Made by a program: the position numbers and the translations under genes
Shown: piece by piece, positions 1 to 16,706 of the stretch
Layout of the letters: each line of letters starts with the position of its first letter
Numbering within the stretch: position 1 is the stretch's first letter
Notes under the pieces: generated by a model
What the model was told of the DNA's origin: nothing
Database searches by the model: none
What the model saw: the letters and a program-made list of their open reading frames with translations, nothing else
Assembly (NCBI RefSeq): GCF_014779595.1
Contig: NZ_JACXZT010000009.1
Span: 3,378-67,377, forward strand
Reading direction: 5' to 3'
Source: Halomonas sp. ML-15
GTDB lineage: Bacteria > Pseudomonadota > Gammaproteobacteria > Pseudomonadales > Halomonadaceae
Length of the DNA stretch: 64,000 nucleotides

Positions 1-43
1 GCCTAATGCTAAATATGAAGAAGGAAAAATTGATATACCATAA
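1..43 (+). CDS. 3' end of an upstream paralogous membrane-protein gene (…PNAKYEEGKIDIP*), same C-terminal type as ORF 1971-2705
   Basis: Frame 2 reads PNAKYEEGKIDIP-stop. Near-identical nt to 2662-2705. Confidence 0.5.
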   Translation, partial: PNAKYEEGKIDIP

Positions 44-226
44 ATCTCGGCTTTTTGTGAACCAATGGCATTATATTTTGAGGCGAAGGGGCTGATGTAA
101 AAAATAGTAATAAGGCCCCGTTCAAGCGCGTGATGAGCCTGCTGTAAATCCTGCATCAGACCTCGGCTAAGCCCACGAGAGCAGTGCGGAAGTGGTGATA
201 TAACCCGAACGTATCAGGGCTACTGG

Positions 227-631
227 GTGAAAATCGCCTTTCCCGCCTTGCTGGCGGGTGAAACCGTCAAGCTATCCGAAAATGCCCGAGGCGGGTTCTG
301 GGCACCTGCCAGCAGTTATGAACAAAGCCCCACTCAACAAGGTGAACGGGGGGCCGTGCTACCCGCTGACGCTGGCTATGACACTGACGATGTACGAGTA
401 TGGCAAACCTGGATTCCCGCCAGTGAGCAAGCCGAGCGCGAGCCGTTTGTACTGACAGTGAATTATGCAGAGACAATGCTCGCATCATCAGAAAGCAGTT
501 TGGGCTTTACCTTTTATAAGCCGAATGCCGCCCGAGGCAAGAAAGAGATCGAGCCTAATAGCGCAGAAGGGCAAGGCATCAGCCTGCCCGCCCGCTTTGA
601 AATCACGGTACCCATGAGTTTAGAAGAGTAA
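227..631 (+). CDS. Leader-module small ORF (134 aa), unknown function; intact only in this copy
   Basis: ORF with conserved core FPALLAGETVKLSENARGGFWAPASSYEQSPTQQGERG. Alternative overlapping frames exist, so coding status is uncertain. Confidence 0.35.
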   Translation: MKIAFPALLAGETVKLSENARGGFWAPASSYEQSPTQQGERGAVLPADAGYDTDDVRVWQTWIPASEQAEREPFVLTVNYAETMLASSESSLGFTFYKPNAARGKKEIEPNSAEGQGISLPARFEITVPMSLEE

Positions 632-641
632 GGATATTGAT

Positions 642-1367
642 ATGTGGTTTGTACAACCCAAACAGGACCATATCTCTCAGATACCATGGATACATGCGGA
701 TGAGACTGCCATTATGAGCTGGCAGATTAGGGCGCGTAATTATAATGTCTTTGTGGCCAATATTTTGTTTTGCGTGCTTTTTGTAGTGTGTTTGATTTCA
801 GCCTATTTGTCTTCCTTCGTAGGAGTGAGCTTGCTATCTAAAGCTTTTGTTGGAGGAGGGATGTTTGTTTTTTTAATATTGATTGCTATGAGCATGACCC
901 ACCAGACCTCCATTCTTGTCTACCGCTTTACAGATCAATATGCAGAGGAATGTACTTGGAAGCCACAGATGGAGGCTGTGAAACCATTTTTAAAATGGTC
1001 GGCTATTATCTCGATGCCAATTGTTCTGGTGCTGATTCTCATGGATCCGTCACTGCTCATTACCAGCCTGGGGCCGCTGGCAATGGGCATCGCGGCTTGG
1101 ATGATGGGGACATCAAAAGGTTATCAAGAACTGCATGGAATGCAACACCACGACTACGATTGGCGTAAAGCTGACAAAGTTTACCTTTATCCGGGAAGAG
1201 ATATCATTGGCTTGAATGTGCCTTGGTATCACCCTGAAATGGACGAGATGATACCGGAAGGTATCAAGGAGATTTATTGCAAAGAAGGTGAACGCGATAA
1301 GGTATTGAATTTTTTGACAAATAATCTCCCAGATATCGAGGTTGTAGAAGAAAAGTTTCATCTGTGA
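642..1367 (+). CDS. Multi-TM membrane protein, cassette family A paralog 1 (241 aa)
   Basis: Hydrophobic helices with GGG between TM1 and TM2. N-terminal 170 aa ~75% identical to 1971-2705. C-terminal ~70 aa unrelated. Confidence 0.7.
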   Translation: MWFVQPKQDHISQIPWIHADETAIMSWQIRARNYNVFVANILFCVLFVVCLISAYLSSFVGVSLLSKAFVGGGMFVFLILIAMSMTHQTSILVYRFTDQYAEECTWKPQMEAVKPFLKWSAIISMPIVLVLILMDPSLLITSLGPLAMGIAAWMMGTSKGYQELHGMQHHDYDWRKADKVYLYPGRDIIGLNVPWYHPEMDEMIPEGIKEIYCKEGERDKVLNFLTNNLPDIEVVEEKFHL

Positions 1368-1502
1368 CGGTGGGGTGTATACGTGATTAAGAGCGTGAGC
1401 TCGATTGTAAAGAGCAGAGCAGGGCTTCATGAATCATAAGGATAGCTATATCATCACAAGCGCCACTGATGTGGCGCTTGGCATGTGCCATGATGTTATT
1501 TT

Positions 1503-1960
1503 GTGACTGAATATATTATCGAGCAGTATAATAAAATAGAGCGCCAAGTCATTTGGTTACAAGTCGCCTTTCCCGCTTTGCTGGCGGGTGAAACCGTCAA
1601 GCTATCCGAAAATGCCCGAGGCGGGTTCTGGGCACCTGCCAGCAGTTATGAACAAAGCCCCACCCAACAAGGTGAACGGGGGCCGTGCTACCCGCTGACG
1701 CTGGCTATGACACTGACGATGTACGAGTATGGCAAGCCTGGATTCCCGCCAGTGAACAAGCTGAGCGCGAGCCGTTTGTACTGACAGTGAATTATGCAGA
1801 GACGCTGCTCGCATCATCAGAAAGCAGTTTGGGCTTTACCTTTTACAAGCCGAATGCCGCCCGAGGCAAAAAAGAGATCGAGCCCAATAGCGAAGAAGGC
1901 CAAGGCATCAGTCTGCCCGCTCGCTTTGAAATCACGGTACCGATGAGTTTAGAAGAGTAA
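1503..1960 (+). pseudogene. Leader-module copy 2, frameshifted at G-tract (G5 vs G6)
   Basis: ORFs 1503-1784 and 1685-1960 together equal 227-631 with a -1 frameshift at 1678-1682. Confidence 0.5.
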
Positions 1961-1970
1961 GGATATTGAT

Positions 1971-2705
1971 ATGTGGTTTGTACAACCCAAGCAGGACTAT
2001 ATTCCAGAGATTCCATGGTTGCATCCGGATGAGCCTGCCATCACAAGCTGGCAAATTAGGGCACGTAACTATGATACACGTGCAGCTAATGTTTTGTTCC
2101 TAGTTCTAGTGGTCGTTTATTTTTTCGGTGCCTATTTGTTTTCTTCTCTATTTGGAGAGTCATTGCTTTTTACTTTTTTGGTAGGAGGGGGGCTTTTTTT
2201 GTTAGCTAGCCTGATTGCCATGAGCATGACCCATCAGACATCTATCCTTGTTTACCGGTTTACGGAGAAAAATGCTGAAGTGTGCTCCTGGAAACCGCAA
2301 ATGGATTCGGTAAAACCATTTTTAAAATGGTCCGCCATTATTTTGATGCCAATTGTTCTGGTGCTGATTCTCATGGATCCCTCGTTGCTCATTACTAGCC
2401 TAGGGCCGCTGGCAATGGGCTTTGCGGCCTGGATGATGGGATCATCAAAAGGCTACCAGGAAATAGCCCGAGGAAGTCGACATGAAGAGATTGACTGGAC
2501 AAAAACGGAGCATATCAAGGTATGGCGAAAGCGAAGCATGATTGCTTTGACCTATCAGTGGAAGCCTTTCAAGCGTAATTCTAGCTACCGACCGAGAACA
2601 CATCTTCTCTACTGCCTTCCCGAAGAACTGGATGACCGCATTCAGTTCTTCAAGGAACACCTACCTGATGCTGAATATGAAGAAGGAAAAATTGATATAC
2701 CATAA
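1971..2705 (+). CDS. Multi-TM membrane protein, cassette family A paralog 2 (244 aa)
   Basis: Paralog of 642-1367. Its C-terminus matches the fragment at 1-43. Confidence 0.7.
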   Translation: MWFVQPKQDYIPEIPWLHPDEPAITSWQIRARNYDTRAANVLFLVLVVVYFFGAYLFSSLFGESLLFTFLVGGGLFLLASLIAMSMTHQTSILVYRFTEKNAEVCSWKPQMDSVKPFLKWSAIILMPIVLVLILMDPSLLITSLGPLAMGFAAWMMGSSKGYQEIARGSRHEEIDWTKTEHIKVWRKRSMIALTYQWKPFKRNSSYRPRTHLLYCLPEELDDRIQFFKEHLPDAEYEEGKIDIP

Positions 2706-2831
2706 AGCTTGACTTTTTGTGAACCATTATATTTTGAGGCGAAGGGGCTGATGTAAAAAAATAGTAATAAGGCCCCGTTCAAGCGCGTGATGACCCTGCT
2801 GTAAATCCTGCATCAGAGCTCGGTTAAGCCC

Positions 2832-3113
2832 ATGAGAGCATTGCGAAGGGGGATATCTCACGAACGAATCAGAGCTGCTGAGTACAAATCGCTTTTTCCC
2901 GCTTTGCTGGCAGGTGAAACCGTCAAGCTATCCGAAAATGCCCGAGGCGGGTTCTGGGCACCTGCCAGCAGTTATGAACAAAGCCCCACCCAACAAGGTG
3001 AGCGGGGGCCGTGCTACCCGCTGACGCTGGCTATGACACCCAACTCAGCCAATGGCGACTGGCATGAAATCGACGGTCGGGCCATCGTGGTCCCAGCCAC
3101 CAGTAACGACTGA
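2832..3113 (+). pseudogene. Leader-module copy 3, truncated and diverging after ERGPCYPLTLAMT; abuts the family B gene
   Basis: Conserved core present. G5 frame. Downstream sequence unrelated to copies 1 and 2. Confidence 0.35.
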
Positions 3114-3120
3114 GCATCTA

Positions 3121-4242
3121 ATGGCGAAACACACACACAGCGAATCGCTTCCCGAACCGACGCCGGGTCAACCTCACCGCGCCGGCGATATCGAGCGTAT
3201 CGGTACCAGCAAGGTGACCTATCTGGCGCCTTTGCCGCTGCCTACTGGCATGTCACCGGTGGATGTCAGTCAAGCCATCGGCGACCTGAACGATACCTGG
3301 CTCGACTATGGTGCCGGACCACCTAACGTTTTTGGTTACCAGTTGGCCTTATTGGGTCCCTTATCCATTGTTTTTTTCAGTCTTGTGCTGCTCCCCCTGC
3401 TACTAATTTCTAATATGGACTGGCAAGGGTATCGAATGTTGCTCGGCATAGCAGTTTTCGGAGGAGGGGGAATATCCATAATATCGTGGTGGACCATGCG
3501 GGACATGCACCGGGAGCGCTTGGGGGCTACCCCCATCCGCTTCCACCGCCAGCGCCGTGAGGTGTGCTTTATCGTCAAAGAGCGGCGCCTGGGCCATGAG
3601 GTCGAGGAGCCGGTCATCATTCCCTGGGAATCGCTGATGGCCTGGGCGGTGGAGGGGTATGGCGCGACCCAGTACGGCACCACGCGGCAGTATGGTCTGG
3701 GAATCGGCTATGCCCACCCCAAGACAGGCAAGTGGTTAAATACCGAGGGCCTGACGGCGGGCATGGCTCTCTCCCTCGGTGAGTGGGAAGTACTACGTGC
3801 TTATATGGAATATGAGCTGAATAGCCTCGATGAGGTGCAGGATCGTCTCGGTCTGCGGGCGCCTGGCGACCCGCCTCACCAGGGTGTGCATACCATTCGC
3901 AATGCCCGCCGTAAGCTCCACCAGAGCCTACGTGAACGTCCCTCGCTCTGGCGCTATCTCTACGCGATAGGGTGGTACTTTATCAACGCCATGACGTTGT
4001 GGACGCTGCCGGGTTATCTGGCGGAGCGGGAGCACCGGCTCATCCAGCAGCAGCGGCCGCAGCTCAAATTGCCCGAGGTGGAAGAGTGGTCGAAGCCCCT
4101 CCCCAAGGAGCAGTGGGCCAAGCCCAGCGAGGAGCTGGTCAGGCTCTCCGCAGAGGTACGGCGGATCCGAGAGTGCGACCCGCAGCGTCCTGTCGAAGAG
4201 GTGTTCGCTGAGGCGTATCGGAAGGAAGGGATCGAGGCCTGA
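3121..4242 (+). CDS. Membrane protein, cassette family B paralog 1 (~373 aa), unknown function
   Basis: N-terminus aligns with paralog 4279-5610 (LAPLPLP vs LSPLPLP). Shared RQRREV(C/A)F(I/V)V and EWSKPLPKxQWAKPS motifs. 2 TM helices with GGG linker. Confidence 0.7.
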   Translation: MAKHTHSESLPEPTPGQPHRAGDIERIGTSKVTYLAPLPLPTGMSPVDVSQAIGDLNDTWLDYGAGPPNVFGYQLALLGPLSIVFFSLVLLPLLLISNMDWQGYRMLLGIAVFGGGGISIISWWTMRDMHRERLGATPIRFHRQRREVCFIVKERRLGHEVEEPVIIPWESLMAWAVEGYGATQYGTTRQYGLGIGYAHPKTGKWLNTEGLTAGMALSLGEWEVLRAYMEYELNSLDEVQDRLGLRAPGDPPHQGVHTIRNARRKLHQSLRERPSLWRYLYAIGWYFINAMTLWTLPGYLAEREHRLIQQQRPQLKLPEVEEWSKPLPKEQWAKPSEELVRLSAEVRRIRECDPQRPVEEVFAEAYRKEGIEA

Positions 4243-4278
4243 TGGTGGTTGCACAGCTATAACGTGTAAGGACGCGCA

Positions 4279-5610
4279 ATGTTCAAGACCGCGCCCAAAA
4301 ATGCCCTGCCCCCGATGCGCGCCGGTGAGCGTGAAAGCCGCGCCGGGGGGGAGCAGTACTGCTTGAGCCCATTACCGCTACCCGTGGATAGCGAGCATGC
4401 AGTAGACGTGGGACATATTGATGTGCGCCATAAGGACGTCACAATGGATATCCGCCAGGGGGCCAGTCCCGAAAGCCTCATGACAGCAGGGCATATGTTA
4501 AGCATTGGGACGTGCGCTATTCTTGTGCTATTTCTTATTACATGGGGCGCTGTCGGCGGTTTCCCACCGGATTCACAGCTTATCTCGGTATGGGTGGGAG
4601 GGCTCTATTTCATTTTCCAGTTTGTCTTTATTCTAGGCATCGTCTGGATCAATACGCTGCTCAGGCGCCTCCCGCCTATTCGTCTTAACCGTCAGCGCCG
4701 CGAAGTGGCATTTGTGGTGGATCCACCTGGCCGCTTCTGGCTACCAGCGCCTCATAATCTCTGGTTAACGTCTACGGTGGGTATGGCTGCCGCAATACCT
4801 GGTGGTATGGTAATAATTGAAATTGGCGAATGGTTGCGCAGCGCCCGGGAGAGTTTTCCGCTGGGGCTGACACTACTCCATCTCGGCGCAATGGCTTTTT
4901 TCTTTGTTTATCCCCCGATCTACGATGCCTTCTGCCGCCTCTTCAAGCGCGAGCGCCGCACGGTGTTGGTGCCCTGGGAAGACGTGGTGGCGGTGTGTGG
5001 GTTTAACCCCAGCCTGGGGCCGGGCGCCATTACCGGCTTTGGCTGGAACTTTGCCCTGCTGCCACCCGATCCCGAGCGGCCGGGCTATACCCTGCCCGGG
5101 GCGGGGATTATGGTTGGCGTCGGCGGCCTGCCCGGCGCGCTGGCCCAGTGGGAGTACATCCGCCGCTTTATGGAAGAGGGCGCCGAGGCGATTACGCCCT
5201 CGGCCAAGGAGTGGGGCCTCGAGCGGTACGACGCCTATGTCGCTCGTGAAAAGGCGGCATGTGAGCGTACCAACGACAAGGCGCGCTGGCGGCGCTTTCG
5301 GCGCAAGCGCCTGTGGGAGCATGCCCGCTTCGCCCACTGGTACACCGAATATCGCATGAAGCACGTGCTGCCCAAGGCGGTTCCCAAGGACTGGCTGTCG
5401 GAGTGGTCCAAGCCGCTGCCCAAGGCACAGTGGGCTAAGCCCTCCGCCGCCGTCACCGAATTGAGCGAGCACCTGCGCGCCGCCTACCAGCGTGGCGAGA
5501 AATTTACCGACATGGGCGATATCGAGAAGCGCTTTGGGATCGCGCCCCCGGCGGCCAGCCAGAGGGCCTATCCGTCGTTTCCGTTTAGAGCTAAGGCTCA
5601 ACCCGCATGA
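4279..5610 (+). CDS. Membrane protein, cassette family B paralog 2 (443 aa)
   Basis: AAGGA RBS upstream. Paralog of 3121-4242. Proline/glycine-rich insert. Confidence 0.7.
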   Translation: MFKTAPKNALPPMRAGERESRAGGEQYCLSPLPLPVDSEHAVDVGHIDVRHKDVTMDIRQGASPESLMTAGHMLSIGTCAILVLFLITWGAVGGFPPDSQLISVWVGGLYFIFQFVFILGIVWINTLLRRLPPIRLNRQRREVAFVVDPPGRFWLPAPHNLWLTSTVGMAAAIPGGMVIIEIGEWLRSARESFPLGLTLLHLGAMAFFFVYPPIYDAFCRLFKRERRTVLVPWEDVVAVCGFNPSLGPGAITGFGWNFALLPPDPERPGYTLPGAGIMVGVGGLPGALAQWEYIRRFMEEGAEAITPSAKEWGLERYDAYVAREKAACERTNDKARWRRFRRKRLWEHARFAHWYTEYRMKHVLPKAVPKDWLSEWSKPLPKAQWAKPSAAVTELSEHLRAAYQRGEKFTDMGDIEKRFGIAPPAASQRAYPSFPFRAKAQPA

Positions 5611-5638
5611 GTAATAAGCTGGTAGATATAAGTGCGTC

Positions 5639-6097
5639 TTGATAATAGATAAGAAGGCTGAGGTCTGTTGGGCTCTGCCCTCATATAGAAGTAAAAACCA
5701 ATGGAATAGCAAGGATATATCAGTGAAGACATTCGATGTTTATGAACATTCTGTTCATGGTGCAAGGGCAGTCAAGCAGGGAATCAACTGGCCAGCCTTC
5801 TTCTTTTGTTGGATCTGGGCCATGGTGAAAAAGATGTGGGCTATTGGGTTTTTTCTGCTCGGCCTATTGGTGGTGTTCGTTGCCATTGAAGAGTTTTTCT
5901 TATACTACGCTAACATAGGGGGCGTATACCTCATGTGGGCAATGCAGCTGGCCGTGTTCCTATACGCTGGAGCGAAAGGGAATGACTGGCGTAGAGGTCA
6001 TCTTCGCAAGCGTGGCTTTCAGTACATTGGCAGCGTAGAAGCGGCGAACCAGGATGCTGCAGTAACCTCGGTAAAGCAAGCCGACTCGGCCTTATGA
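5639..6097 (+). CDS. DUF2628-like small membrane protein
   Basis: GINWPAFFFCWIWAMVKKMW motif, typical of the DUF2628 family. 2 TM helices. Confidence 0.55.
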   Translation: MIIDKKAEVCWALPSYRSKNQWNSKDISVKTFDVYEHSVHGARAVKQGINWPAFFFCWIWAMVKKMWAIGFFLLGLLVVFVAIEEFFLYYANIGGVYLMWAMQLAVFLYAGAKGNDWRRGHLRKRGFQYIGSVEAANQDAAVTSVKQADSAL

Positions 6098-6257
6098 AGC
6101 AGCAGTACATTAACCAACAGGTGATCAGCCCTGATCTCGGTAACGCCGATGATGATTACTTTGGGTGTGCCAAGATATATAGGATACTTGTCTAGGGCGG
6201 AAGAGCGTCGAGACAATCAATGTCAGGAACCATATATACAGTAAAGGGGTATAGAGT

Positions 6258-6644
6258 GTGAGCAGTGAAGAAGAGAAGGCTGTACTGAAAGAATTGGATT
6301 TCGAGTGTCCCTCATGTGGTTCTTGCTTCTGCGAAGAGTCGCAGTGGGTCGCCAATCTTATAGAATTCAAGACAGCCACTTGCCCAGACTGTAGCAGCGA
6401 GCTGGCGATGGGCGAAGAAGATGAAAGTCGACTGGTGGAATTTATGAAAAAGAAGGAAAGATTTGGAAAGGCGATGTTTGTATTTATGCTGCCCTATATG
6501 ATTGGGGGGCTTGCTGTGTCTCTCTACTTCGGTGGTCTCGGGTTTATGCTCTATATGCCCGTCGGAATTGCAGGCTTCGCACTCCTGAAAGTGCTATTCG
6601 ATAACCAGTCCGACATGACCGTTCGCTTTAATCTGAGTGAGTAA
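6258..6644 (+). CDS. Zinc-ribbon (CxxC…CxxC) protein with C-terminal 2-TM anchor
   Basis: CPSCGSC…CPDC motifs. Hydrophobic C-terminus. GTG start with AAGGGG RBS. Confidence 0.5.
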   Translation: MSSEEEKAVLKELDFECPSCGSCFCEESQWVANLIEFKTATCPDCSSELAMGEEDESRLVEFMKKKERFGKAMFVFMLPYMIGGLAVSLYFGGLGFMLYMPVGIAGFALLKVLFDNQSDMTVRFNLSE

Positions 6645-6772
6645 CGTAATTTCCGCCGACCTGGTAGACGGCGGTTTCAATGACCCAGTGTAAGGAATGG
6701 TATGACGCATATGTGGCCAGTAAGAGGGCGCCGAGCGAGCGCACCAAGAGTTCGGCAAGACAGGGAGTTCGC

Positions 6773-9028
6773 ATGATCTGCAGGAAAGGCCTCATTTTTT
6801 CAATTGTGGTGACCATGACGATGGTTATGGGCTGCTCATCCGAGCCTGAGTCGGTTGCGTTTGCTCCTGAAAAAGGCGACACACGGAGCTACCAACTCTT
6901 CAGTGAGGGCAGGCTAGGCTCCGGGTCATCCAATACCGGTCGTGATCAGGTTGTAGGGTTTGGCTCGGTATTGCGCTATGAGGTACTGGATATTGGCCGA
7001 TCTCTGAATCTGGCGATTACTCCCAGGTATCTAGAACAAAGCGTGGACGGGAGACGAGAGTTCTCCACGATGGATCCTTCGGATACCCAGAATCCAGTGA
7101 TGCGGGAGCTCATGTCCGCGGGCTTTGAAGTCGACATCGACAGTGATTCTGGAGAAGTGCGCCGTTTTACCAGCCGTAACGAGGACCTCTGGCAGACATT
7201 ACAGGAGGATGGTCTAGCGCCATTGCTCGAGATTTTCGAGGAGCAGATGACCACCGGTATGGCAATGCCTGAGATTCCGCTGACCGAAGGCGAAGTGGTG
7301 ACAGTGTCGGGCTCTCATGGCGCTGCTGACTTGCAGATTACAGTGCATTCGGTGACGGATACCGAGCTCGTGACAACACTCCAGACCGATCATGAAGAGG
7401 TCAAGTTGGCAGGCACCATGGTGCTGGAGCGTGAAACCGGATGGCTTCGTCGTCTTGCCGTGGTGAGCGAAGTGAGTCAGGAAGATCACGAAGGGCATGG
7501 CACGGTACGCCAGGCACTGGTCATGCTGCCGGAGGATGAGCCGTCCTGGTTGGGGGCATGGCTTATTAATATGGCGCCGAGTGATCCAGATGATTATGTC
7601 GCTATTCAGCCCGGCCCATCGCCGGAGGAGTTCGATGGCGATGCATTGGTAGATGGGGATACTGTACTGACTGCGCCTGTGGGTACATGGGTACCTTTTT
7701 CCAGTGAGATCGTTCTGGAGATTGACCATGATCTACCTAAAGGGGCGTTCTCTGGGTATCTAGATTTTGCTGATTTACGGATTGAAAGCGAAGAGGGTGA
7801 GGTACTGGATGTAGGGTTACAACAAACCATGCGTTACGCCTTCTATCACCCCGATCGCAAGCGGCATACCACGCAGGCTTGGTATGTTCCCCTTGGTTGG
7901 GGCGACGAACTGGCACCGCTGGAGCGCGCGAAGCGTCTTACTGCAACGGGAGTAGCATACCGCCCGGTGGCGGCAGAAGCGCTGGATTTGCCGCTGGACA
8001 GTGATCAAAAGACAGAGGTGACATCTGGGGACATCCGTGCCGAGGCAATACCCACGGATAGTCCGAGGGAGTTTTTATTGCGCTTTCATAGTACGCCGGA
8101 TCACTGGTTCGGTGATCGTATCTACGGCATAAAAGATGCGATTACGCGGAGGATTCCGGAAGAGGACGCTCCAGACTGGCTGACATCCCACGAGGCTTGG
8201 ATGTTACAAGCGGTGGCGATAGGACGTTCGACAGCCAGCGACCTGCGTGTCGAGTTTGAAGAGGGCAAGACCCCTGACAGCTTGACCCTGTTCGCGCTCA
8301 GCGAAAGCGAAGCCGTTCCCGTCGACGGTCCTGTCCGTTTTGTCACCGAAGAGGCCCGCTACTCCGATATCGATCTGCCGCCCCCCTTTGACGTCACCCT
8401 TTACCCAGACGGGGATGAACCGCCTCAGGTTGGATTGGCTGACCTGGAATTACCCGATGCGGAGAACAACCGCGCGCTGTTTAGGCTCCCGGCGTCCTTG
8501 GCAGCCATGTGTGAACCAGTGGTGGTCGAGGCCCCGAAGATCAATAACCAGCCACTGGTGTGGCAGCACGTTGATGAGGACGACGCTGGTAACCGGCAGC
8601 AACTGCCCACTGAACAGAAATGGCAGCTGATTACCGAGGATGGCGTGCGCAAGCACTTTTATGACATTGAAGTAGAAAGCGAGCTCCGCTGTCGGGGAGA
8701 AGGAGAGTGGCAGACGGTAGACCTGGCGCTGGGTGACAAACCTTGGCTCGTGCGCCTGGACGAGCTCCCAGACGCTGTTGATCAAGAGCAGAGCATGAGT
8801 CGCTTCCTCCAGCGTTACCGCTTTGTCAGTGAACAGGGCGATGCGCTGGCACCGATGCCGAGAGAGAGGTACAGCGATGTCTCTCTGGCCACAGCTTCAA
8901 TTGCCGATTACCTCAATGAAGGTGATCGGCTGCGTCTGGCGGGAAGTGTCCAGCGAGTGGAGCGTTTCGAGGGCGATGGTCAACCCGACACACGCCGCTG
9001 GTCGCTACGCTACGCGCCGCTGCCATAA
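6773..9028 (+). CDS. Large acidic lipoprotein (~751 aa), unknown function
   Basis: Start at ATG 6773 (GGGAG RBS) gives signal peptide with lipobox VMGC. Long acidic ORF with no recognisable catalytic motif. Confidence 0.7.
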   Translation: MICRKGLIFSIVVTMTMVMGCSSEPESVAFAPEKGDTRSYQLFSEGRLGSGSSNTGRDQVVGFGSVLRYEVLDIGRSLNLAITPRYLEQSVDGRREFSTMDPSDTQNPVMRELMSAGFEVDIDSDSGEVRRFTSRNEDLWQTLQEDGLAPLLEIFEEQMTTGMAMPEIPLTEGEVVTVSGSHGAADLQITVHSVTDTELVTTLQTDHEEVKLAGTMVLERETGWLRRLAVVSEVSQEDHEGHGTVRQALVMLPEDEPSWLGAWLINMAPSDPDDYVAIQPGPSPEEFDGDALVDGDTVLTAPVGTWVPFSSEIVLEIDHDLPKGAFSGYLDFADLRIESEEGEVLDVGLQQTMRYAFYHPDRKRHTTQAWYVPLGWGDELAPLERAKRLTATGVAYRPVAAEALDLPLDSDQKTEVTSGDIRAEAIPTDSPREFLLRFHSTPDHWFGDRIYGIKDAITRRIPEEDAPDWLTSHEAWMLQAVAIGRSTASDLRVEFEEGKTPDSLTLFALSESEAVPVDGPVRFVTEEARYSDIDLPPPFDVTLYPDGDEPPQVGLADLELPDAENNRALFRLPASLAAMCEPVVVEAPKINNQPLVWQHVDEDDAGNRQQLPTEQKWQLITEDGVRKHFYDIEVESELRCRGEGEWQTVDLALGDKPWLVRLDELPDAVDQEQSMSRFLQRYRFVSEQGDALAPMPRERYSDVSLATASIADYLNEGDRLRLAGSVQRVERFEGDGQPDTRRWSLRYAPLP

Positions 9029-9045
9029 ACAGGGAGGTATGTTTC

Positions 9046-10929
9046 ATGAAACGTTTTTGCTGTGTTCTGGTGTTCACCTTGGCATTTATCCCGTGGCTGG
9101 TGCTAGGCGAAGAGGGGGGCGATATTCAATGGATCGACGCCGACCTTATGGGGGTGGAAGAGGGCGACTCTACGGCCGCGTACTACTTTGAGCCACCGGT
9201 GGCCGATGGTGAACTCTGGTCGGTCATCCTTTACTACATTGACGAGAGCGACGGCGATGATCCCGTGGTCGCGTATGACGTCCAACTCGATAACCCGGAC
9301 TTTCACGATGCGTTCTTGGTGGGTGAATACAGCCGCTACTACCAGGATGGCAGCCTCCACAGAGTTGGCACGCTGGATGACAAGAGCCGACCACATGGGA
9401 CCTTTACCCATTATCACCGCGATGGCAGCTACGAGGTGTCGGAATATCGGCATGGGCAGCGTCATGGATACCGTCGCGACTACCACGCCAACGATCAACT
9501 GAAACACGAGCAGCACTTCGTTGATGGCGAGCCCGAGGACGGCGAGCGCGTTTACTACGATGAGAATGGTGAAGTGACAACGCGATACTGGCACGTGGAC
9601 GGCAAACTGCATGGTGCGTTGGAACGATTCGTTGGCGGTGTGCTGATGCTAGGGGAGGACTACGTTGATGGACAGCGGCACGGTTGGGCGCGTCGTTTTA
9701 CCGAGGAGGGTGAAAAGGTCAGCGAAGTGGAGTTTGTAGGCGGACAGAGACATGGTGTTGAACGTCGCTGGAGTGATGGCCAGCTTACTCTGGAGAGCCA
9801 CTATCGGCACGGCCAGCAACATGGCCAGCGCCAACGATGGGACGATGGCGTCCTCATCGTGAATAGCTCGTACGTGGAGGGGTCACGTCAGGGTGAAGCG
9901 CAGTTCTTCCGTAATGATGGTACCCGAAGCCGTTACGAATACCGGGATGAGGACGGGCAACTCATTGAGAGACGGGAATATGGCACTGACGACCAGATGA
10001 CCTCGCTGATGATCGTCGAAGAGGGGGAGTACGGCCCTATGACTCGCCAGGAAACCTATCGCGACGGTGCGCTGGTGAGACGCAGGGTGAATAGCGAGGA
10101 CCGTCGTTGGAGTCTGGACGAGCAGTTTCAGCCCCCTGGTGCGGAAGAGCCACGTTACCGACGGGAGACGGTTGACCGTGAGATGCACGGCCGCCAGGTG
10201 AGACCGCTCAACTGGCCAGAAGGTAGTACTGAGATCGGTGAATACGATCATGGTGTCCCGGTGGGGGAACACCGGCATACCGATGAGGATGGCAATCTGA
10301 TCGCCGGTGGGCGGTATGAAAACGGTCACAAAGTGGGTGAGTGGATCACGCTGAGCTACGAGAGCACTGTCCACGAGAACTATGACGATGAGGGGCGTTT
10401 GCACGGCGAGCGTCGGGAAGTCCACGAGGATGGCACGCAGCTGGTGCGGGAGCATTATCGACATGGGGAGCGGCATGGCGATTACATTCAGCGCCATGCG
10501 TGGAACGGGCACATCATAGGCGAAGGTGAGTACCGCGATGGTCAGCGGATCGGCACATGGCGGGTGTTCAACGATTCCCACCAGGCGACATTCGAAGGTG
10601 AGTATGTCGACGGTGAAAAGGACGGACTCTGGGTAGCCCACTTCGAGGATGGCTATGAGCGTGGGAGGGTTCGCTATGACGCCGGATTGCCAGTGGGTGA
10701 TCACTACATTTTCACCCACGATGGCGCCGTGGAGCTAGTCTCCCGTTACGAGGAGGGGCGGCTGCATGGTGAGCAACTGCGTTATTTCGAAGGTACGTTA
10801 AGTGAGGTCCGGCGCTATCGCAATGGAGAGCCCCACGGATTGAACGAGTTCTTCCTGCCTGACGGCGAGCGCTACATGGTGTCGGAATACCGTGACGGCG
10901 TTCTGCTGGAAAGGGAAGACGAGCTGTGA
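9046..10929 (+). CDS. Secreted MORN-variant (YwqK-like) repeat protein (627 aa)
   Basis: Signal peptide. More than 15 tandem ~23-aa repeats of the form Y..DG.L...G.Y..G.RHG. AGGGAGG RBS. Confidence 0.75.
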   Translation: MKRFCCVLVFTLAFIPWLVLGEEGGDIQWIDADLMGVEEGDSTAAYYFEPPVADGELWSVILYYIDESDGDDPVVAYDVQLDNPDFHDAFLVGEYSRYYQDGSLHRVGTLDDKSRPHGTFTHYHRDGSYEVSEYRHGQRHGYRRDYHANDQLKHEQHFVDGEPEDGERVYYDENGEVTTRYWHVDGKLHGALERFVGGVLMLGEDYVDGQRHGWARRFTEEGEKVSEVEFVGGQRHGVERRWSDGQLTLESHYRHGQQHGQRQRWDDGVLIVNSSYVEGSRQGEAQFFRNDGTRSRYEYRDEDGQLIERREYGTDDQMTSLMIVEEGEYGPMTRQETYRDGALVRRRVNSEDRRWSLDEQFQPPGAEEPRYRRETVDREMHGRQVRPLNWPEGSTEIGEYDHGVPVGEHRHTDEDGNLIAGGRYENGHKVGEWITLSYESTVHENYDDEGRLHGERREVHEDGTQLVREHYRHGERHGDYIQRHAWNGHIIGEGEYRDGQRIGTWRVFNDSHQATFEGEYVDGEKDGLWVAHFEDGYERGRVRYDAGLPVGDHYIFTHDGAVELVSRYEEGRLHGEQLRYFEGTLSEVRRYRNGEPHGLNEFFLPDGERYMVSEYRDGVLLEREDEL

Positions 10930-12038
10930 TGAGGTGCCAGTGGAAATCGATGAGGCTGCCGATCTCGGTGATGCTGATGATCCTGACGTTGATCGCGTGT
11001 GACTCAGCCAGGGATGTCGATGTGATTCAGGAGTACCGGGGAAACAGCCATCGTACCGGGCTGTTCGAGGGTAGTGGGCCAAGTGAAAAGCCCAGTCAGC
11101 TATGGCGCTTCCTCACATTGAGTGTGCTGACAGAAACTCCGGTGATCGGCGGTGACACCTTGTTCGTTGGAAGTACCGATCGCTCCGTCTATGCTCTCGA
11201 CGTAGACACTGGAAAGCGGCGTTGGCGTTACAGAACTCTGGGCAATGTTCGCGATGCGGTCGCTGTGGACGAGCAACGCGTTTATGCTGCTGGTGAGGAT
11301 AATACTTTCTACGCCATCGACCGCTATAGCGGCGAGCCACACTGGCAGTTTCCCCTGGACAAGACGCCCCACGGTGCTGCCGCGGTGCGCGAGGGCTTGG
11401 TCTACTTCGGCAGTTTCGATGATCGAGTGATTGCACTGGATACCGACACCGGTGAGCTAGTGTGGGAGTTTCAAGGCAGTCGATCGTTCGCCGCGGGCAT
11501 CACCGTGGTCGAGGACACCCTGTATGCCGCTAGCTTCGACGGACATCTCTACGCGTTTGATGCCGAAACTGGGGAGAAACGCTGGCGGGTTTCCGTGGGT
11601 CGAGGACATTGGCTGACCACCACGCCTGTCTACCGTGAGGGGCAGGTCTTCGTCGGTGGTTGGGCGCAGTACATGACGGCTGTCGGCGCCGAAACAGGAG
11701 AAATCAACTGGACCATCGACACCGAATCTCGGTTGGACCATCCTCCCAGCGTGGCACATGGCTTGGTCTACATCAGTGGAATGAACGCTCTGCAGGCCGT
11801 GGATGAGCAGACTGGGGAACTACGCTGGTCCTTCGATGAGCGCATATTCCGCTCCCCCGCGGTGACCGATAATCGCCTATACGCCGCTTGCGAGAACCAG
11901 GTCTGTACCCTGGATCCTATCAGTGGCGAACTGCTTTGGCGCTCCGATCCGTTGAGCGATACCGTCACTACAATCACCGTGCACGGAGATAGGCTTTTCG
12001 TGACCACCATTGATGGTTATATCTACGCCCTGCAGTGA
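10926..12038 (+). CDS. PQQ-like beta-propeller repeat lipoprotein (BamB-like fold)
   Basis: Lipobox LIAC. Repeats of (V)YAxxxDxxhYAhDxxTGExxWxF. Start overlaps the upstream stop (translational coupling). Confidence 0.75.
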   Translation: MMRCQWKSMRLPISVMLMILTLIACDSARDVDVIQEYRGNSHRTGLFEGSGPSEKPSQLWRFLTLSVLTETPVIGGDTLFVGSTDRSVYALDVDTGKRRWRYRTLGNVRDAVAVDEQRVYAAGEDNTFYAIDRYSGEPHWQFPLDKTPHGAAAVREGLVYFGSFDDRVIALDTDTGELVWEFQGSRSFAAGITVVEDTLYAASFDGHLYAFDAETGEKRWRVSVGRGHWLTTTPVYREGQVFVGGWAQYMTAVGAETGEINWTIDTESRLDHPPSVAHGLVYISGMNALQAVDEQTGELRWSFDERIFRSPAVTDNRLYAACENQVCTLDPISGELLWRSDPLSDTVTTITVHGDRLFVTTIDGYIYALQ

Positions 12039-12187
12039 GGGGGCGTGTCAGCCCGCGATCTAAACATGGGTGAGTGTCTGTCACCCATTGAGTACGAACG
12101 GCATTATTGCCAGAGCCCATCGGGTGTTCAGAATACCCGATGTGGCGCATAAGAAACTGTTGAGCAACCGATCGAGACAGGTGAAAA

Positions 12188-12760
12188 ATGATAAGGATCA
12201 TTAGATACTTCATTATTACTACGGTTATGCTGGCCAGCTTTTCGGCAGCTGTTGCCGAAAACAGAGATGAGAAGGAAGAAGTGATTGAACTGTTTTCAGA
12301 ATATCTGGAGGCATATTCAGAGTCGGACTTTCATAGAGCAGCAACCTTTGTCCATCCGCAACATTTGAGTGACTATGAACGATACACTCTCCCGGTGCTG
12401 ATTGAGGCGAAGAACCACCCCAGGGGTGCGCAGCACATGATTGTGGAGGTGTTTTTTGAGGGGGTGCCAGACGACAAGATCCATGAGCTAACCGGCAAGC
12501 AGATATCAGCACGCCTTGATCGCGCTATGGTGAGTTATCTCCCGATAATTATCGAGTCAGCGCGTATGGAAAACTTAACTATCAAGACGGTCGATTTCTT
12601 GGACGAGGGTCGTGCCAGGGTAAGCTATGATTACCTTAATAGTGATGGTGAGATAAATGAACTTGAGGATAACTTCGCAAAATATGAAGATGAGTGGAGA
12701 ATTTTGCTGCCCGAGCCACCTAAACAAGCTGCAGAGAGTTTGAAGAGCCTTTATTGGTAA
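12188..12760 (+). CDS. Small secreted protein (signal peptide), unknown
   Basis: N-terminal signal sequence MLASFSAAVA. Acidic. Confidence 0.55.
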   Translation: MIRIIRYFIITTVMLASFSAAVAENRDEKEEVIELFSEYLEAYSESDFHRAATFVHPQHLSDYERYTLPVLIEAKNHPRGAQHMIVEVFFEGVPDDKIHELTGKQISARLDRAMVSYLPIIIESARMENLTIKTVDFLDEGRARVSYDYLNSDGEINELEDNFAKYEDEWRILLPEPPKQAAESLKSLYW

Positions 12761-12819
12761 GGCGGCCGGTCTCGCGGAGTGGCCGCCATTAAGCGACTTG
12801 AAGCCCTACTTTTTTAGTA

Positions 12820-13455
12820 ATGGAGCAATACATGATCCCTTTTCGTTTTAATAGAGACTTTGATGTCGAGATGCTCGAGTCTCTATATCAGCATCTCCGC
12901 ACCCATGACAATGGAGTGGAACTTACTCTACGTGCTCCAGGCGGAAATAAAGTAGACGCTGCTGGCAAGGCAGTTTCCGGGGTGGTCAAGGATGCTGGAG
13001 GAAGAACATTGTTATCAATGCGCCCAAAAGAGGGGGTTGTTTACTTGAGGCGGGCTGGTGCTTTAAAGGCACCTCTGATTGATTTTCTTAAGGAGCGTGG
13101 ATTTGATCAAGATAAAATAAATGGTGAGCTTTCCGTGGTATGTATCGGTGTTTACATTGCGCTAGTGGCTGGTCTTGGGTTTTACTATTTTCTCAATGCC
13201 CAGATGCTGTATTTTTACCCTGTTCTATTGATGTGCGCAGGCGTGATGGTTGCTGGATTATTTCTCTTGTCGCACTCCAGCAAGCCGGGCCAAGAGGTTT
13301 GGGAATTACCCGGAATGATTATGCTTGTTCTAGGCGCTTTGTTTACCGCCCCAGCGTGTATCTTGGCGAAGCCAATGATCAAGACGCTTGGGCTAAAGAA
13401 GTTGCAGTATCATCTTGTACAGGACAATGTCAGCTTGTATGAGGTAGAAAGGTAG
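12820..13455 (+). CDS. Membrane protein, unknown (soluble N-domain plus 3-4 TM)
   Basis: Hydrophobic segments in the C-terminal half. Confidence 0.45.
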   Translation: MEQYMIPFRFNRDFDVEMLESLYQHLRTHDNGVELTLRAPGGNKVDAAGKAVSGVVKDAGGRTLLSMRPKEGVVYLRRAGALKAPLIDFLKERGFDQDKINGELSVVCIGVYIALVAGLGFYYFLNAQMLYFYPVLLMCAGVMVAGLFLLSHSSKPGQEVWELPGMIMLVLGALFTAPACILAKPMIKTLGLKKLQYHLVQDNVSLYEVER

Positions 13456-13495
13456 TTGATCCGTAAGTCAAGTAGGTGCTTGAATCCACTCAGCT

Positions 13496-14071
13496 ATGAT
13501 TGATCATGAGTTGTACAGGGGAAAATCTGTGAAATGTACCGCGTGCCAAGAAGGCAATCTGATCCCGAGCTTCCTGGATGACTTGTTTCGTTGTCATACG
13601 TGCGATAGTTGCGGCGGGAACTGGATCTTGATTGAAGACTATATTAGCTGGAAGGAACGGCATCCGGAGCATGTGTTCTCCGGTGAGAGCATCGATGCCG
13701 AGGATTCGCCGGGTGCCTTGATCTGTCCTATGAGCGGCGGGTTGATGCGAAAGTTCCGGATTGCCAAGGACAATGCCCATCGAGTGGATTATAGCGCCAG
13801 GGTCGGTGGAGTATGGCTACACAAGGGTGAATGGGAGATGCTGGTGGCCGAAGGCTTGGCGGGCAACCTTAATGCTATTCTGACGGACCAGTGGCAGCAC
13901 CGTATTCGCCAGGAGAAAGCCAGTGAGTCCCTCGAGAACTTGTATCGCAGTAAGTTCGGGGAAAGTGACTACCAGAGGGCTTGCGAAATCAGGGAGTGGC
14001 TGCATGATCATCCGCAGAAATCTGATATTCGAGCGTTTCTCATGGCCGATTCGCCGTTCTCGGTATCCTAG
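13496..14071 (+). CDS. Tandem TFIIB-type zinc-ribbon domain protein
   Basis: C..C…C..CGG.W and CPMSGG…GGVWL.KGE.E.L patterns characteristic of bacterial zf-TFIIB-like ribbons. Confidence 0.5.
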   Translation: MIDHELYRGKSVKCTACQEGNLIPSFLDDLFRCHTCDSCGGNWILIEDYISWKERHPEHVFSGESIDAEDSPGALICPMSGGLMRKFRIAKDNAHRVDYSARVGGVWLHKGEWEMLVAEGLAGNLNAILTDQWQHRIRQEKASESLENLYRSKFGESDYQRACEIREWLHDHPQKSDIRAFLMADSPFSVS

Positions 14072-14105
14072 GTAACTGCATATAAGTTGGCGAGCTCGGG
14101 GGATA

Positions 14106-14633
14106 TCACCAGGCGATGACCGCGATGAGCATGAGTATCCCGAAGGGAACTGCCACCCAAAGCATCAGAGCTAGCGGTATCAGCGTCGCACAGCGCCTTG
14201 CTCGTGGCCGTTTATCCCCCCAGCGAATGAAGCAAGCACATAGCGGACTGGCGATCAGAGAGGCCGTTACTATAAGATTGGTATCTTGGCCATCATGTAT
14301 TAAAGAGGCTGGAGGAAGCCCGTTTATAGGCCAAAAATCGAGACGCAGTATCATCAGGGCCAAGGCGGCTGCGAAGAGTCCCATGGCAATTTGCCAAGGG
14401 TAGCTGTGGCGTGCGAGATAATGCCGGAAAAGAGCATAGAATGCTCCCGTCATTACTGGGCCTAGGCCAGCAAAAAAATAGACCAAGGGGAAAAATGGAA
14501 TGGCAACAAGCAGTGGAGGAGCCAAAACGGAAATTGGCAAAATGAAGCACCATGGCCCTAATACCGCATAGACGAGAATAGACTCCCACGCCGGTGTAGG
14601 GGGAGTAAGGGAAGGCTCGGGTTCTGTTCGCAT
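14106..14633 (-). CDS. Multi-TM membrane protein, unknown; downstream of the PspA-like gene
   Basis: 4-5 hydrophobic helices. Confidence 0.45.
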   Translation of the reverse strand: MRTEPEPSLTPPTPAWESILVYAVLGPWCFILPISVLAPPLLVAIPFFPLVYFFAGLGPVMTGAFYALFRHYLARHSYPWQIAMGLFAAALALMILRLDFWPINGLPPASLIHDGQDTNLIVTASLIASPLCACFIRWGDKRPRARRCATLIPLALMLWVAVPFGILMLIAVIAW

Positions 14634-14756
14634 GAGGGCCGCGGCAGCCTGTATGGTGGGGTGTTGATGGGTCTATTTATCGCCGGACAGGCGTAGCGCC
14701 CTAACGGTGCCAGGGAAACATCTGGGGCCATCTACCCATGGCCCCAGACATCGGTG

Positions 14757-15461
14757 CTACGAGGCAGATTCGCTACGCGAAGCCTTCAAGCGAGCCATGA
14801 CACCTTCCACAGCGTCGCTTTCCTGATCGATGCCTGCTGCCTTCAGGCGCTCGTCGAGGTCGGCACCGGTCAGCTCCTTCTCCAGCTGCACGCTGGCATG
14901 TTGCTTATCCTCAAGACGTTGCTGGCGCTCGCGGATACGAGCGAGGGTGGTCTTGGCACTGGTCAGAGAGGACTGGTTGCTACCGATGTTGGTGTCGATC
15001 TGAGCGGTAGTGCGGAGTACCCGCTCGTTGGTCTTGACCACTTGGAGTTCGCGCTTGTATTCGGCCAGCTGTTTCTCCGACTTCTGCATGCGTTCACGCA
15101 TGCTGTCCACCTTGCCTTGCAGCTTGGTACGGGTGGCGGTTAGCTCGCTGCGTTGGCGCTCTGCTTCCACGATGCGTTCGGCGACTTCGCGAGCCAGGTC
15201 TTCCTTGCTGGCTGCCAGGGCCTTGCGGGCGTCATCTTCACGGCGGGCGATTTCATCTTCTGTATTCTTGATCTGGCGTGCAAGGGAGGTGTTCTCGGCC
15301 ATCAGGGCTGCAAGCTCCTGACGCGCCTGTTGAAGCTCGTTCTCGGCGTCACGTATTTCCTGTTCGAAGATGCGGTTCGCCTGGTTGTCCACGACCGACT
15401 CGCCCAGTTCGTTAACCCCTCCGCGCATGGCGGTAAGCATTTTCTTGAATACCGATTTCAT
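14757..15461 (-). CDS. PspA/IM30 (ESCRT-III-like) family protein, YjfJ-like
   Basis: N-terminal MKSVFKKMLTAMRGGVNELGE…NQANRIFEQEIRDAENELQQARQ. Coiled-coil throughout. Typical PspA/IM30 length. Confidence 0.85.
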   Translation of the reverse strand: MKSVFKKMLTAMRGGVNELGESVVDNQANRIFEQEIRDAENELQQARQELAALMAENTSLARQIKNTEDEIARREDDARKALAASKEDLAREVAERIVEAERQRSELTATRTKLQGKVDSMRERMQKSEKQLAEYKRELQVVKTNERVLRTTAQIDTNIGSNQSSLTSAKTTLARIRERQQRLEDKQHASVQLEKELTGADLDERLKAAGIDQESDAVEGVMARLKASRSESAS

Positions 15462-15476
15462 ACCGTAGCGCTCCTG

Positions 15477-15881
15477 TTACTTTAAGAAATCTTCAAATAT
15501 TTCAAGTAGATCAATGGCGTTGTCGGCAAGAGTGGTTAGCTCTTGGGCAATTTCTCGATAGGTTGCCGAAGTGGCCAAGGCCCCATGTACGACATAATGT
15601 TGCTCGATTTTGCCAAGAGCGCTGAGTGGCATGGGCACGCTGAGTCTCAGCATGTTGTCGAGAAGTGTCGGGAGACGCTCCGGGATGACTTCACCCTCAT
15701 CAAAAAGGTAAGTGAAGCATAGAATCTGTGCTTCGTCGGCGGTGAGGTAGACAGGCATCTCCTCTGCGCCCGAAACGGTAACCTGCAGCACGTCTTCTTT
15801 ACCTTCTATAGGCATGACGTGGAAGTGTCGACCTTCATGGGTCGTATCGCTGAGGTGTAATGTGAGGTCTTGCGTATCCAC
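15477..15881 (-). CDS. YjfI-like (DUF2170) cytoplasmic protein, partner of the PspA-family gene
   Basis: Size and position immediately upstream of the PspA-like gene mirror the E. coli yjfI-yjfJ arrangement. Sequence recalled as DUF2170-like with moderate certainty. Confidence 0.55.
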   Translation of the reverse strand: MDTQDLTLHLSDTTHEGRHFHVMPIEGKEDVLQVTVSGAEEMPVYLTADEAQILCFTYLFDEGEVIPERLPTLLDNMLRLSVPMPLSALGKIEQHYVVHGALATSATYREIAQELTTLADNAIDLLEIFEDFLK

Positions 15882-15909
15882 TGCGCTCTCCCTTTCTCGT
15901 GGAATCTGG

Positions 15910-15938
15910 TTGACAGCGTTTCTACAACTAATTAAGTT
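15910..15938 (+). promoter_or_regulatory. Candidate sigma70 promoter for the nfeD-flotillin operon in the divergent intergenic region
   Basis: TTGACA, 17 nt spacer, TAAGTT. Confidence 0.3.
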
Positions 15939-16047
15939 TATCCGGATGAAGAGGGGGTTGGCAACGCATTGGCTACTGAATGTCGTTGCAAGGGGAGGCT
16001 TTGCCAGGGATTCCTGAGGCAGCCATAGTTAAAGCCTGTCTCAAGGG

Positions 16048-16683: not shown

Positions 16684-16706
16684 GCCGGTGTAAACACGCA
16701 GGCAAC

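Follow-up and report, generated by a model that had tools for sequence, protein, structure and literature searches.

Probable orphan immunity proteins related to Pti2 and DUF6708 at the tail of a type VI secretion effector cluster of Halomonas sp. ML-15

The stretch of DNA analyzed here, referred to as the window, comprises 64,000 nucleotides of contig NZ_JACXZT010000009.1 of Halomonas sp. ML-15 (positions 3,378 to 67,377 of the forward strand). Near its left end, two adjacent plus-strand genes, B1 (3121..4242, 373 aa) and B2 (4279..5610, 443 aa), code for hypothetical membrane proteins. With a probability of roughly 85%, these are inner-membrane immunity proteins, related to Pti2 and DUF6708, which stand as orphans at the tail of a type VI secretion system (T6SS) cluster of vgrG, adaptor and effector genes that was built by serial replacement of effector 3' ends. 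The family would neutralize pore-forming T6SS effectors of the VasX family (MIX / VasX_N, BTH_I2691-type), B1 as a putative Pti2-like immunity protein for Ptx2-type effectors and B2 as a putative class directed at another effector subtype. With its left end, the window would cover the tail of the vgrG-adaptor-effector cluster of strain ML-15, in which effector 3' end and immunity gene may have been replaced together, successively, leaving a row of cassettes: A0; an A-type remnant with A1; a frameshifted remnant with A2; an A-type remnant fused to a Ptx2-type tail with B1; and B2. Most likely, B1 and B2 have been kept against Ptx2-type and B2-type effectors fired by other Halomonadaceae. This reading is built on what the sequences show: homologous proteins with conserved motifs, linkage to effector genes, the junctions between cassettes, and purifying selection.

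Two adjacent homologous open reading frames (ORFs) had already been described in an earlier sequence-only reading of this DNA; their coordinates agree exactly with that description, and BLASTP and hhalign bear out the homology. BLASTP aligned B1 and B2 in two collinear segments (E 3e-10 and 3e-06) of about 25-30% identity, and the profiles of the B1 and B2 subfamilies align end to end over 331 columns (hhalign, 100% probability, E 8e-68). The two ORFs are 36 nt apart; neither is truncated or interrupted, and no invariant residue is missing. The sole large difference between them is an insertion of about 70 residues in B2, located right after the RQRREVAFVV motif and containing two extra hydrophobic helices, which stays unmatched in the hhalign comparison with the B1 family. 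Since B1 and B2 are only about 28% identical, and each has orthologues of about 80% identity in other genera, they are old, anciently diverged specificity classes joined by recombination, not recent local duplicates.

Two signature motifs had likewise been proposed, and both are conserved across an alignment of 56 sequences. The first reads RQRREVCFIV in B1 and RQRREVAFVV in B2, the second EWSKPLPKEQWAKPS in B1 and EWSKPLPKAQWAKPS in B2. Residues R143, R145, E147, W323, S324 and S336 are invariant, and Q144, R146, V148, P326, L327, P328, Q331, W332, A333 and P335 are conserved in at least 90% of the sequences; the motifs are signatures of the family and not chance similarities. In Kyte-Doolittle analysis, B1 has two hydrophobic helices, B2 has three that exceed the threshold, and both products are predicted to be integral inner-membrane proteins. 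The glycines that had been taken as a "GGG linker" between the helices lie elsewhere than supposed: the GGGG of B1 (residues 113-116) is situated within the second hydrophobic helix, B2 has VGGLYF at this position, the columns are variable across the family, and the actual loop between the two transmembrane (TM) helices of B1 has about 9 residues (95-103). As to the start of B1, the ATG at 3121 is the one used by its orthologues; the ATG at 3052 does not match them. The version of B1 in the NCBI annotation (P0006, 248 aa) begins about 125 codons too late and would lose both TM helices, and the late start recurs in the annotations of the relatives P0007 and P0008 (245 aa).

Database searches retrieved 742 homologues of B1, from Halomonadaceae, Pseudomonas, Marinobacter and others. 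The Pseudomonas aeruginosa protein P0088 (380 aa), which represents a cluster of 342 sequences, shares 43% identity with B1 (94% coverage, E 2.9e-87). Its gene follows directly after those of a DUF4123 adaptor and a 1174-aa VasX_N effector (locus L001), and the locus adjoins argH, algZ/algR and hemCD, which identifies it as the vgrG6 island. Because the DUF4123 adaptor is present and the effector has 1174 aa, the locus was read as PA14-type, with P0088 presumably corresponding to the Pti2 protein of the tap6-ptx2-pti2 arrangement. The locus had initially been taken as PA5265/PA5264 (TpeX/TpiX) of strain PAO1; this assignment was dropped in view of the adaptor gene and the 1174-aa effector, TpeX being reported as adaptor-less and of 119 kDa. 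B1 thus shows the homology expected of Pti2-type immunity, and B2 is linked to it via the profile alignment (E 8e-68).

For Pti2, genetic experiments have validated the role in immunity. A strain without ptx2 and pti2 was outcompeted about 1000-fold by its H2-T6SS-active parent (PMC11582642), and deletion of pti2 resulted in tssM2-dependent self-intoxication on solid medium (bioRxiv 10.1101/2025.04.30.651342). Pti2 resembles B1 in its length class (373 aa in B1 and 380 aa in P0088), in the RQRREV and WSxPLPxxQWxxPS motifs, and in the succession of a TM hairpin and a beta-sheet domain; the Halomonadaceae orthologues of B1 moreover share the adaptor-effector-immunity gene order. In contrast to Pti2, B1 in the window is preceded by only the last 24 codons of an effector gene, and its host is a halophile, not a Pseudomonas. 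TpiX (PA5264), which protects strain PAO1 partially against TpeX (PA5265) and co-purifies with it (bioRxiv 10.64898/2026.08.24.746647), occupies the same position in the vgrG6 island as the P. aeruginosa homologue of B1. As presumed for B1 and B2, it is an inner-membrane protein providing immunity to a VasX-like pore former (bioRxiv 10.64898/2026.08.24.746647). However, TpiX has been described with four predicted TM helices, unlike B1, and TpeX needs no adaptor.

DUF6708 proteins are listed as T6SS immunity proteins and occur in eight tandem copies in Stenotrophomonas rhizophila (PMC10777753, PMC13340143); named examples are Tsi3a and the 8-copy poly-immunity locus of this species. Like the B genes, DUF6708 genes follow those of DUF4123 proteins and VasX_N effectors and occur in tandem (PMC10777753), and the matches to B1 and B2, although weak, cover TM2 and the region of the RQRREV strand. 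Of 15 family members, 7 are matched by the Pfam model PF20455 at E <= 0.01 (the best at 2e-05), precomputed matches to it exist for a few close relatives (P0012, P0338, P0348, P0375), and a phmmer search with B2 reached named DUF6708 proteins with E values of 7e-12 to 1e-6. Whereas the B family has a conserved architecture of about 370 aa with an extra C-terminal motif, the Pfam model comprises about 200 positions. The B family and DUF6708 appear to be distantly related, with a Pfam model that does not capture B1 and B2. TsiV2/VasX of Vibrio cholerae and Tki5/Tke5 of Pseudomonas putida are comparable in that a MIX effector with a hydrophobic pore-forming region is combined with DUF4123 and VgrG proteins and with a toxin-binding membrane immunity protein encoded downstream; Tki5 forms a membrane complex with Tke5 (PMC13133200). 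TsiV2 and Tki5 (about 35 kDa) are likened to B1, B2 and the family A proteins described below by the logic of the system, not by sequence. The family, which the sequence-only reading had not recognized by name, is hence one already known as Pti2-like and DUF6708-related.

To place the B genes in their genomic context, neighbourhoods were compared in 79 loci, i.e., 78 loci from species-representative genomes and L001. A relative of the P. aeruginosa effector is present in 73 of them, the match exceeding 900 aa in 58. The C-terminus of a VasX_N (MIX) effector is encoded no more than 400 bp upstream of the first B gene in 67 of the 79 loci, a DUF4123 adaptor is also present in 46, and 30 loci contain two to five B genes in tandem. 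The earlier suggestion that the paralogs belong to an array of immunity genes against membrane-targeting effectors, with a link to T6SS, agrees with these counts and with the function of the published relatives; homologues consistently found in housekeeping contexts, named at the time as the finding that would speak against it, are not what the neighbourhoods contain.

B1 is 78-84% identical to Halomonadaceae orthologues that are encoded directly after full-length effector genes, as in L002 (Billgrantia aerodenitrificans) and L007. Relatives of B2 from Alkalilimnicola ehrlichii (L081, 63% identity) and Halomonas eurihalina (L082, 41%) are the products of the first gene after a VgrG - DUF4123 - VasX_N effector series, beside VipA/VipB or TssM genes. 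B2-type or bona fide DUF6708 genes come first after those of DUF4123 proteins and VasX_N effectors in L081, L082 and L084, and in a Shewanella contig, too, the genes of bona fide DUF6708 proteins stand in this order. Pfam searches confirmed VgrG, DUF4123, VasX_N and TssM in L013, L080, L081 and L082. What the effectors encoded ahead of B1-type, B2-type and family A genes have in common is only their N-terminal MIX/VasX_N region (24-29% identity). Because they differ outside this region, the three immunity families track three effector subtypes.

The DNA to the left of B1 holds a series of cassettes. Position 1 lies within A0, a family A immunity gene cut by the window edge; its 3' end (1..42, plus strand, as all features of the array) reads EYEEGKIDIP followed by the stop codon, as at the end of A2. 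The first effector remnant (227..631) is what is left of a VasX-family effector gene of the A type: its last 134 codons, without the N-terminal part and with a GTG start but no ATG. Its product aligns to the C-termini of the effectors encoded at L013 5872..9216 (1114 aa), upstream of which VgrG, DUF4123 and TssM are encoded, and at L080 6622..9990 (1122 aa, with a near-identical tail). The gene that follows, A1 (642..1367), encodes a family A membrane protein of 241 aa with putative immunity to the A-type effector, and is IEI94_05670 of Halomonas sp. ML-15 (100% identity). The second remnant (1557..1960) carries a frameshift in the G-run around 1677-1681 (5 G, not 6), and its translation is divided between two ORFs in different frames (1503..1784 and 1685..1960); it precedes A2 (1971..2705), coding for a family A membrane protein of 244 aa that is 60% identical to A1 (BLASTP E 1e-94). 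The third remnant (2883..3039) contains the first ~157 nt of the A-type 3' fragment and ends at a recombination junction, where the last ~24 codons and the stop codon of a Ptx2-like (B1-type) effector gene (3040..3113) are fused to it.

The junction is visible in alignments from both sides. Up to ...GCTGGCTATGACAC, the third remnant equals cassettes 1 and 2, and it diverges beyond. From about 3039 on, the window matches L002 from 9919 onward at 82% identity, which in Billgrantia aerodenitrificans is the 3' end of a full-length effector gene of the VasX_N type (1199 aa), followed by the B1 orthologue; the same Ptx2-type effector tail is found in L007 and L003. B1 begins 7 nt after the stop codon of this tail. 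The repeats within the array are of 90.6% identity between 2..384 and 2664..3039 (end of A2, spacer, and start of the next remnant), 85% between 231..1130 and 1561..2462, and 96.8% between 1558..1713 and 2883..3039. Three times, an immunity gene follows a promoter-less, N-terminally truncated effector 3' fragment with a common stretch, as in an orphan array; the DNA of these fragments (227..631, 1557..1960, 2883..3113) is 85-97% identical, one of them being frameshifted and one chimeric. Comparable effector fragments occur in L009, L011, L035 and L067. A scan of positions 1..6700 yielded 6 promoter-like and 10 terminator-like elements, against 6.3 and 6.9 expected from shuffling, which is no excess over chance; the three "terminator" hairpins on the minus strand merely reflect coding sequence that the effector remnants repeat. 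NCBIfam gave no match for A1, A2, B1, B2 or the effector remnant.

Arrays of orphan immunity genes or displaced effector 3' ends are known from Rhs and contact-dependent inhibition (CDI) orphan modules and from the orphan immunity genes of V. cholerae T6SS auxiliary clusters. In those arrays, and presumably in this one, 3' fragments with an immunity gene apiece are lined up behind the current effector gene, and the homologous stretch of the fragments can serve as recombination site. In contrast to those arrays, the polymorphic part in Halomonas sp. ML-15 is a short C-terminal domain (~134 aa) of a VasX-family pore former, and one junction joins two different effector subtypes. The array is an ordinary orphan-immunity arrangement with unusually legible junctions.

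In two close relatives, the array lies directly downstream of an intact vgrG-adaptor-effector-immunity unit. The gene order in Halomonas sp. BL6 (L080) is TssM - PAAR-lysozyme - VgrG - DUF4123 - VasX_N effector - A, followed by the displaced cassettes [remnant + split A] - [remnant + A] - [chimeric remnant + frameshifted B] - B2; after B2, a gene for a zinc-ribbon membrane protein and then housekeeping genes are found. In H. colorata (L003), the order is VgrG - DUF4123 - effector - A - A - remnant - B1 - B - B - B2. Family A genes follow directly after an A-type effector gene in L003, L013, L019, L038, L054, L067 and L080. Strain BL6 also contains, between tssM and vgrG (L080 2265..3655), genes for a PAAR and phage-lysozyme effector (294 aa) and a 170-aa putative immunity protein; this pair lies upstream of the VasX-family effector.

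Comparison with orthologues yielded ratios of nonsynonymous to synonymous substitution (dN/dS) of 0.07-0.13 for B1, 0.09-0.10 for B2, 0.16 for A1 (reference, the L080 orthologue) and 0.21 for A2 (reference, L080 12859..13590). Such values indicate that all four are under purifying selection, and because the ratios stay within 0.07-0.21, the genes are regarded as maintained, and not as undergoing the rapid diversification that the description "fast-evolving" in the sequence-only reading had implied.

VasX-family effectors are delivered to the periplasm, insert a hydrophobic domain in the inner membrane and dissipate the membrane potential, and the membrane-bound immunity proteins of relatives of this family bind the toxin (PMC13133200; bioRxiv 10.1101/2025.04.30.651342; bioRxiv 10.64898/2026.08.24.746647). 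By analogy, B1 and B2 would be anchored in the cytoplasmic membrane by a helical hairpin (two hairpins in B2), and the immunity protein would bind the incoming toxin directly and block the ion-conducting channel that would otherwise dissipate the membrane potential. Judged from homology and context, B1 and B2 should act in this way on two effector subtypes, and A1 and A2 on a third. The distribution of positive charges, counted in 56 B1-type, 28 B2-type and 44 A-type sequences, bears on where the contact may take place: lysine and arginine residues average 0.1 in the 9-residue loop between TM1 and TM2 whereas the 25 residues that follow TM2 contain 7.0 of them; the charges around the B2 insertion are distributed similarly. 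Nearly all of the soluble mass is therefore predicted to be cytoplasmic, with tiny periplasmic loops, and this predicted topology leans to binding of the toxin's transmembrane region inside the membrane. A variant of the immunity role, in which the proteins act in or beneath the membrane and their own helices bind the inserted transmembrane domain of the toxin, as in colicin immunity, is possible, albeit with less than even odds. It would agree with the predicted cytoplasmic location of the soluble domains and with the second TM hairpin in B2 and family A; Tki5, moreover, co-purifies with Tke5 from membranes, and the AlphaFold 3 (AF3) model of this pair has contacts to the toxin's transmembrane region (PMC13133200). 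However, in the AF3 model of Ptx2-Pti2 it is the soluble "sensor" helices 316-411 of Ptx2 that Pti2 contacts with its curved beta-sheet (bioRxiv 10.1101/2025.04.30.651342), the TpeX-TpiX model places residues 170-180 of TpiX in an N-terminal pocket of TpeX (bioRxiv 10.64898/2026.08.24.746647), and the most conserved motifs of the family are situated outside the TM helices.

Other explanations accept less of the proposal that B1 and B2 are orphan immunity proteins. Within the window, they are orphans because neither a cognate effector nor any VasX_N/TpeX-like match is present: tblastn with the P. aeruginosa effector found no match anywhere in the window, all that is left of a Ptx2-type effector gene ahead of B1 is 74 nt, and B2 is preceded by no effector sequence. 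With respect to the whole genome, their orphan status is probable. That the cognate effectors are encoded elsewhere in the ML-15 genome, B1 and B2 being extra or displaced copies for self-immunity, is unlikely, even if the visible DNA is 64 kb of a genome and other strains possess several such loci (three in Pseudomonas sp. MPB23, two each in P. migulae, P. helleri and Litchfieldella anticariensis), with Ptx2-type and A-type loci side by side in L054. Besides the missing effector sequence, the recurrence of effector-less B1 and B2 genes after an A-type effector in L003, L019, L067 and L080 argues against it. Decay would be another fate of displaced genes, and signs of it are seen in the frameshift of the second effector remnant, in strain BL6, where a frameshift has made a pseudogene of the gene at the B1 position and one copy of family A is split, and in the split B-gene matches in L008, L015 and L067. 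Nevertheless, it is very improbable that B1 and B2 themselves are decaying relics of past effector replacement with no present function, in view of their intact ORFs with all invariant residues, dN/dS values of 0.07-0.13, and intact B2 orthologues in BL6, L067 and many other genomes. The idea that they are housekeeping membrane proteins unrelated to interbacterial antagonism hardly deserves credence; a few homologues carry names such as "SoxR reducing system RseC family", "DNA-binding protein" or "Ycf4", but no Pfam or NCBIfam model of the families so named matches, 67 of the 79 loci are effector-linked, and published genetics supports immunity (PMC11582642).

Several observations detract from the assignment of B1 and B2 to an orphan immunity array of a T6SS cluster. 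No T6SS core gene and no VasX_N effector is located within the 64-kb window, and the upstream cluster is deduced from the relatives BL6 (L080) and H. colorata (L003) only. The identification of P0088 as Pti2 (PA14_69510) follows from locus architecture and not from an accession match, and TpiX is likened to B1 and B2 by locus position and description, not by sequence. With 16.0 bits (E 0.011) and 19.1 bits (E 0.0012), respectively, B1 and B2 stay below the gathering score of 27 of the Pfam family DUF6708 (PF20455). Soluble domains on the cytoplasmic side, as predicted, would fit poorly with simple capture of the toxin in the periplasm. Protection, finally, has been demonstrated in the literature for relatives from outside Halomonas, and is probable by analogy for the B1 and B2 copies of strain ML-15.

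Family A has no Pfam or NCBIfam model. Its hits number 72 when clustered at 90% identity and 105 when represented at 50%, and all that are named by source belong to Halomonadaceae; it is the likely immunity partner of the third subtype of VasX-family effectors. Comparison of family A with family B by BLASTP gave an E value of 1.5, and hhalign aligned the B1 family with family A weakly (62.6%, 61 columns over TM2 and the RF..EV region) and the B2 family at 0.75%. The A-family hidden Markov model (HMM), run against 1.84 billion representatives, matched 105 proteins, none of which exceeds 297 aa and thus none of B length. A single superfamily of A and B proteins as a demonstrated fact was rejected on the basis of the BLASTP result, the B2-family comparison and the absence of B-length matches of the HMM; the hint of such a superfamily in the sequence-only reading is reflected in similar architecture alone.

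Structure models allow the architectures to be compared. The AlphaFold 2 (AF2) model of B1 (predicted local distance difference test, pLDDT, 83.4; predicted template modelling score, pTM, 0.79) consists of N-terminal strands (24-63), a long helical hairpin (70-94 and 101-135), six strands (139-212), a helix cap (215-229), and a helical C-terminal part with the WSKPLP motif. The A1 model (pLDDT 73.3, pTM 0.56) shows the order strand, TM1-TM2, beta hairpin, TM3-TM4, five to six strands, and helix, i.e., four TM helices interleaved with a beta domain like that of pleckstrin homology (PH) proteins. This order of elements equals that of B2, whose second TM pair sits after the RQRREV strands. The beta domain of B1 would be PH-like as well, going by the order of its secondary-structure elements. 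A Foldseek search of the PDB, the structure check that had been suggested, returned nothing at E <= 0.001. It is conceivable, if rather doubtful, that family A, the Pti2-like B family and DUF6708 go back to one scaffold, in which a PH-like beta domain has taken up a TM hairpin or two, and which has diversified per effector subtype and neutralizes the pore from within or beneath the membrane. Its order may be strand - TM-TM - two strands - [TM-TM] - four strands - helix.

Downstream of the array, 28 nt after B2, a plus-strand gene (5639..6097) codes for a DUF2628 membrane protein (Pfam E 1.9e-08) with a sub-threshold NCBIfam match to "Erum7620/ECH_0207 putative T1SS effector" (type I secretion system); a homologue of 76% identity is encoded beside the B2 orthologue of L009. 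The next gene (6258..6644, +) encodes 128 aa with two CxxC pairs, resembling a zinc ribbon, and then two hydrophobic helices. In L003 (13496..13870), L038 and L009, homologues are located within the immunity array or immediately behind it, and L004 and L005 have fragments of it downstream of their B genes. The protein encoded after B2 at L080 16777..17220 has the same build (zinc ribbon and TM, 147 aa) and no sequence match to it. The 6258..6644 protein may be another orphan immunity or accessory protein of these islands. Three co-directional genes (6680..12038, +) code for a 782-aa protein without family match, a 627-aa protein with MORN_2 repeats (YwqK-like), and a 370-aa PQQ/BamB-like beta-propeller; because such repeat proteins often are immunity proteins, these genes may extend the island. 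A 211-aa ORF (12820..13455, +) without Pfam match has homologues of 41-44% identity near the immunity arrays of L009 and L038.

Further downstream, a PspA/IM30 gene (14757..15461, -) is followed on the plus strand, up to 23735, by two ORFs without family match (211 and 651 aa) and the gene of a 1683-aa protein with DUF3686, DUF7902 and AAA domains; the genes of 14757..23735 may form a module related to membrane stress or to a large ATPase. In the low-GC part (26611..28919, -), an M48 peptidase that carries a DUF7092 domain is encoded next to a DUF898 membrane protein. The G+C content is 44-62% in 1..30000 (mostly <58%, with a patch of 60-64% at 18-24 kb) as compared to 61-70% in 30001..64000, which is consistent with the first 30 kb, immunity array included, being a horizontally acquired island.

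The understanding of these T6SS systems is unchanged, as the immunity family was already known, and family A is the most original by-product of the analysis. The analysis provides a functional label for two "hypothetical" genes, one of them with a start called too late, and for family A, and it describes an array that is a clean record of serial effector replacement, including the junction between two effector subtypes. Read in this way, a halophile would keep immunity to at least three classes of pore-forming T6SS toxins and probably fires one, which helps to predict who kills whom among the Halomonadaceae.

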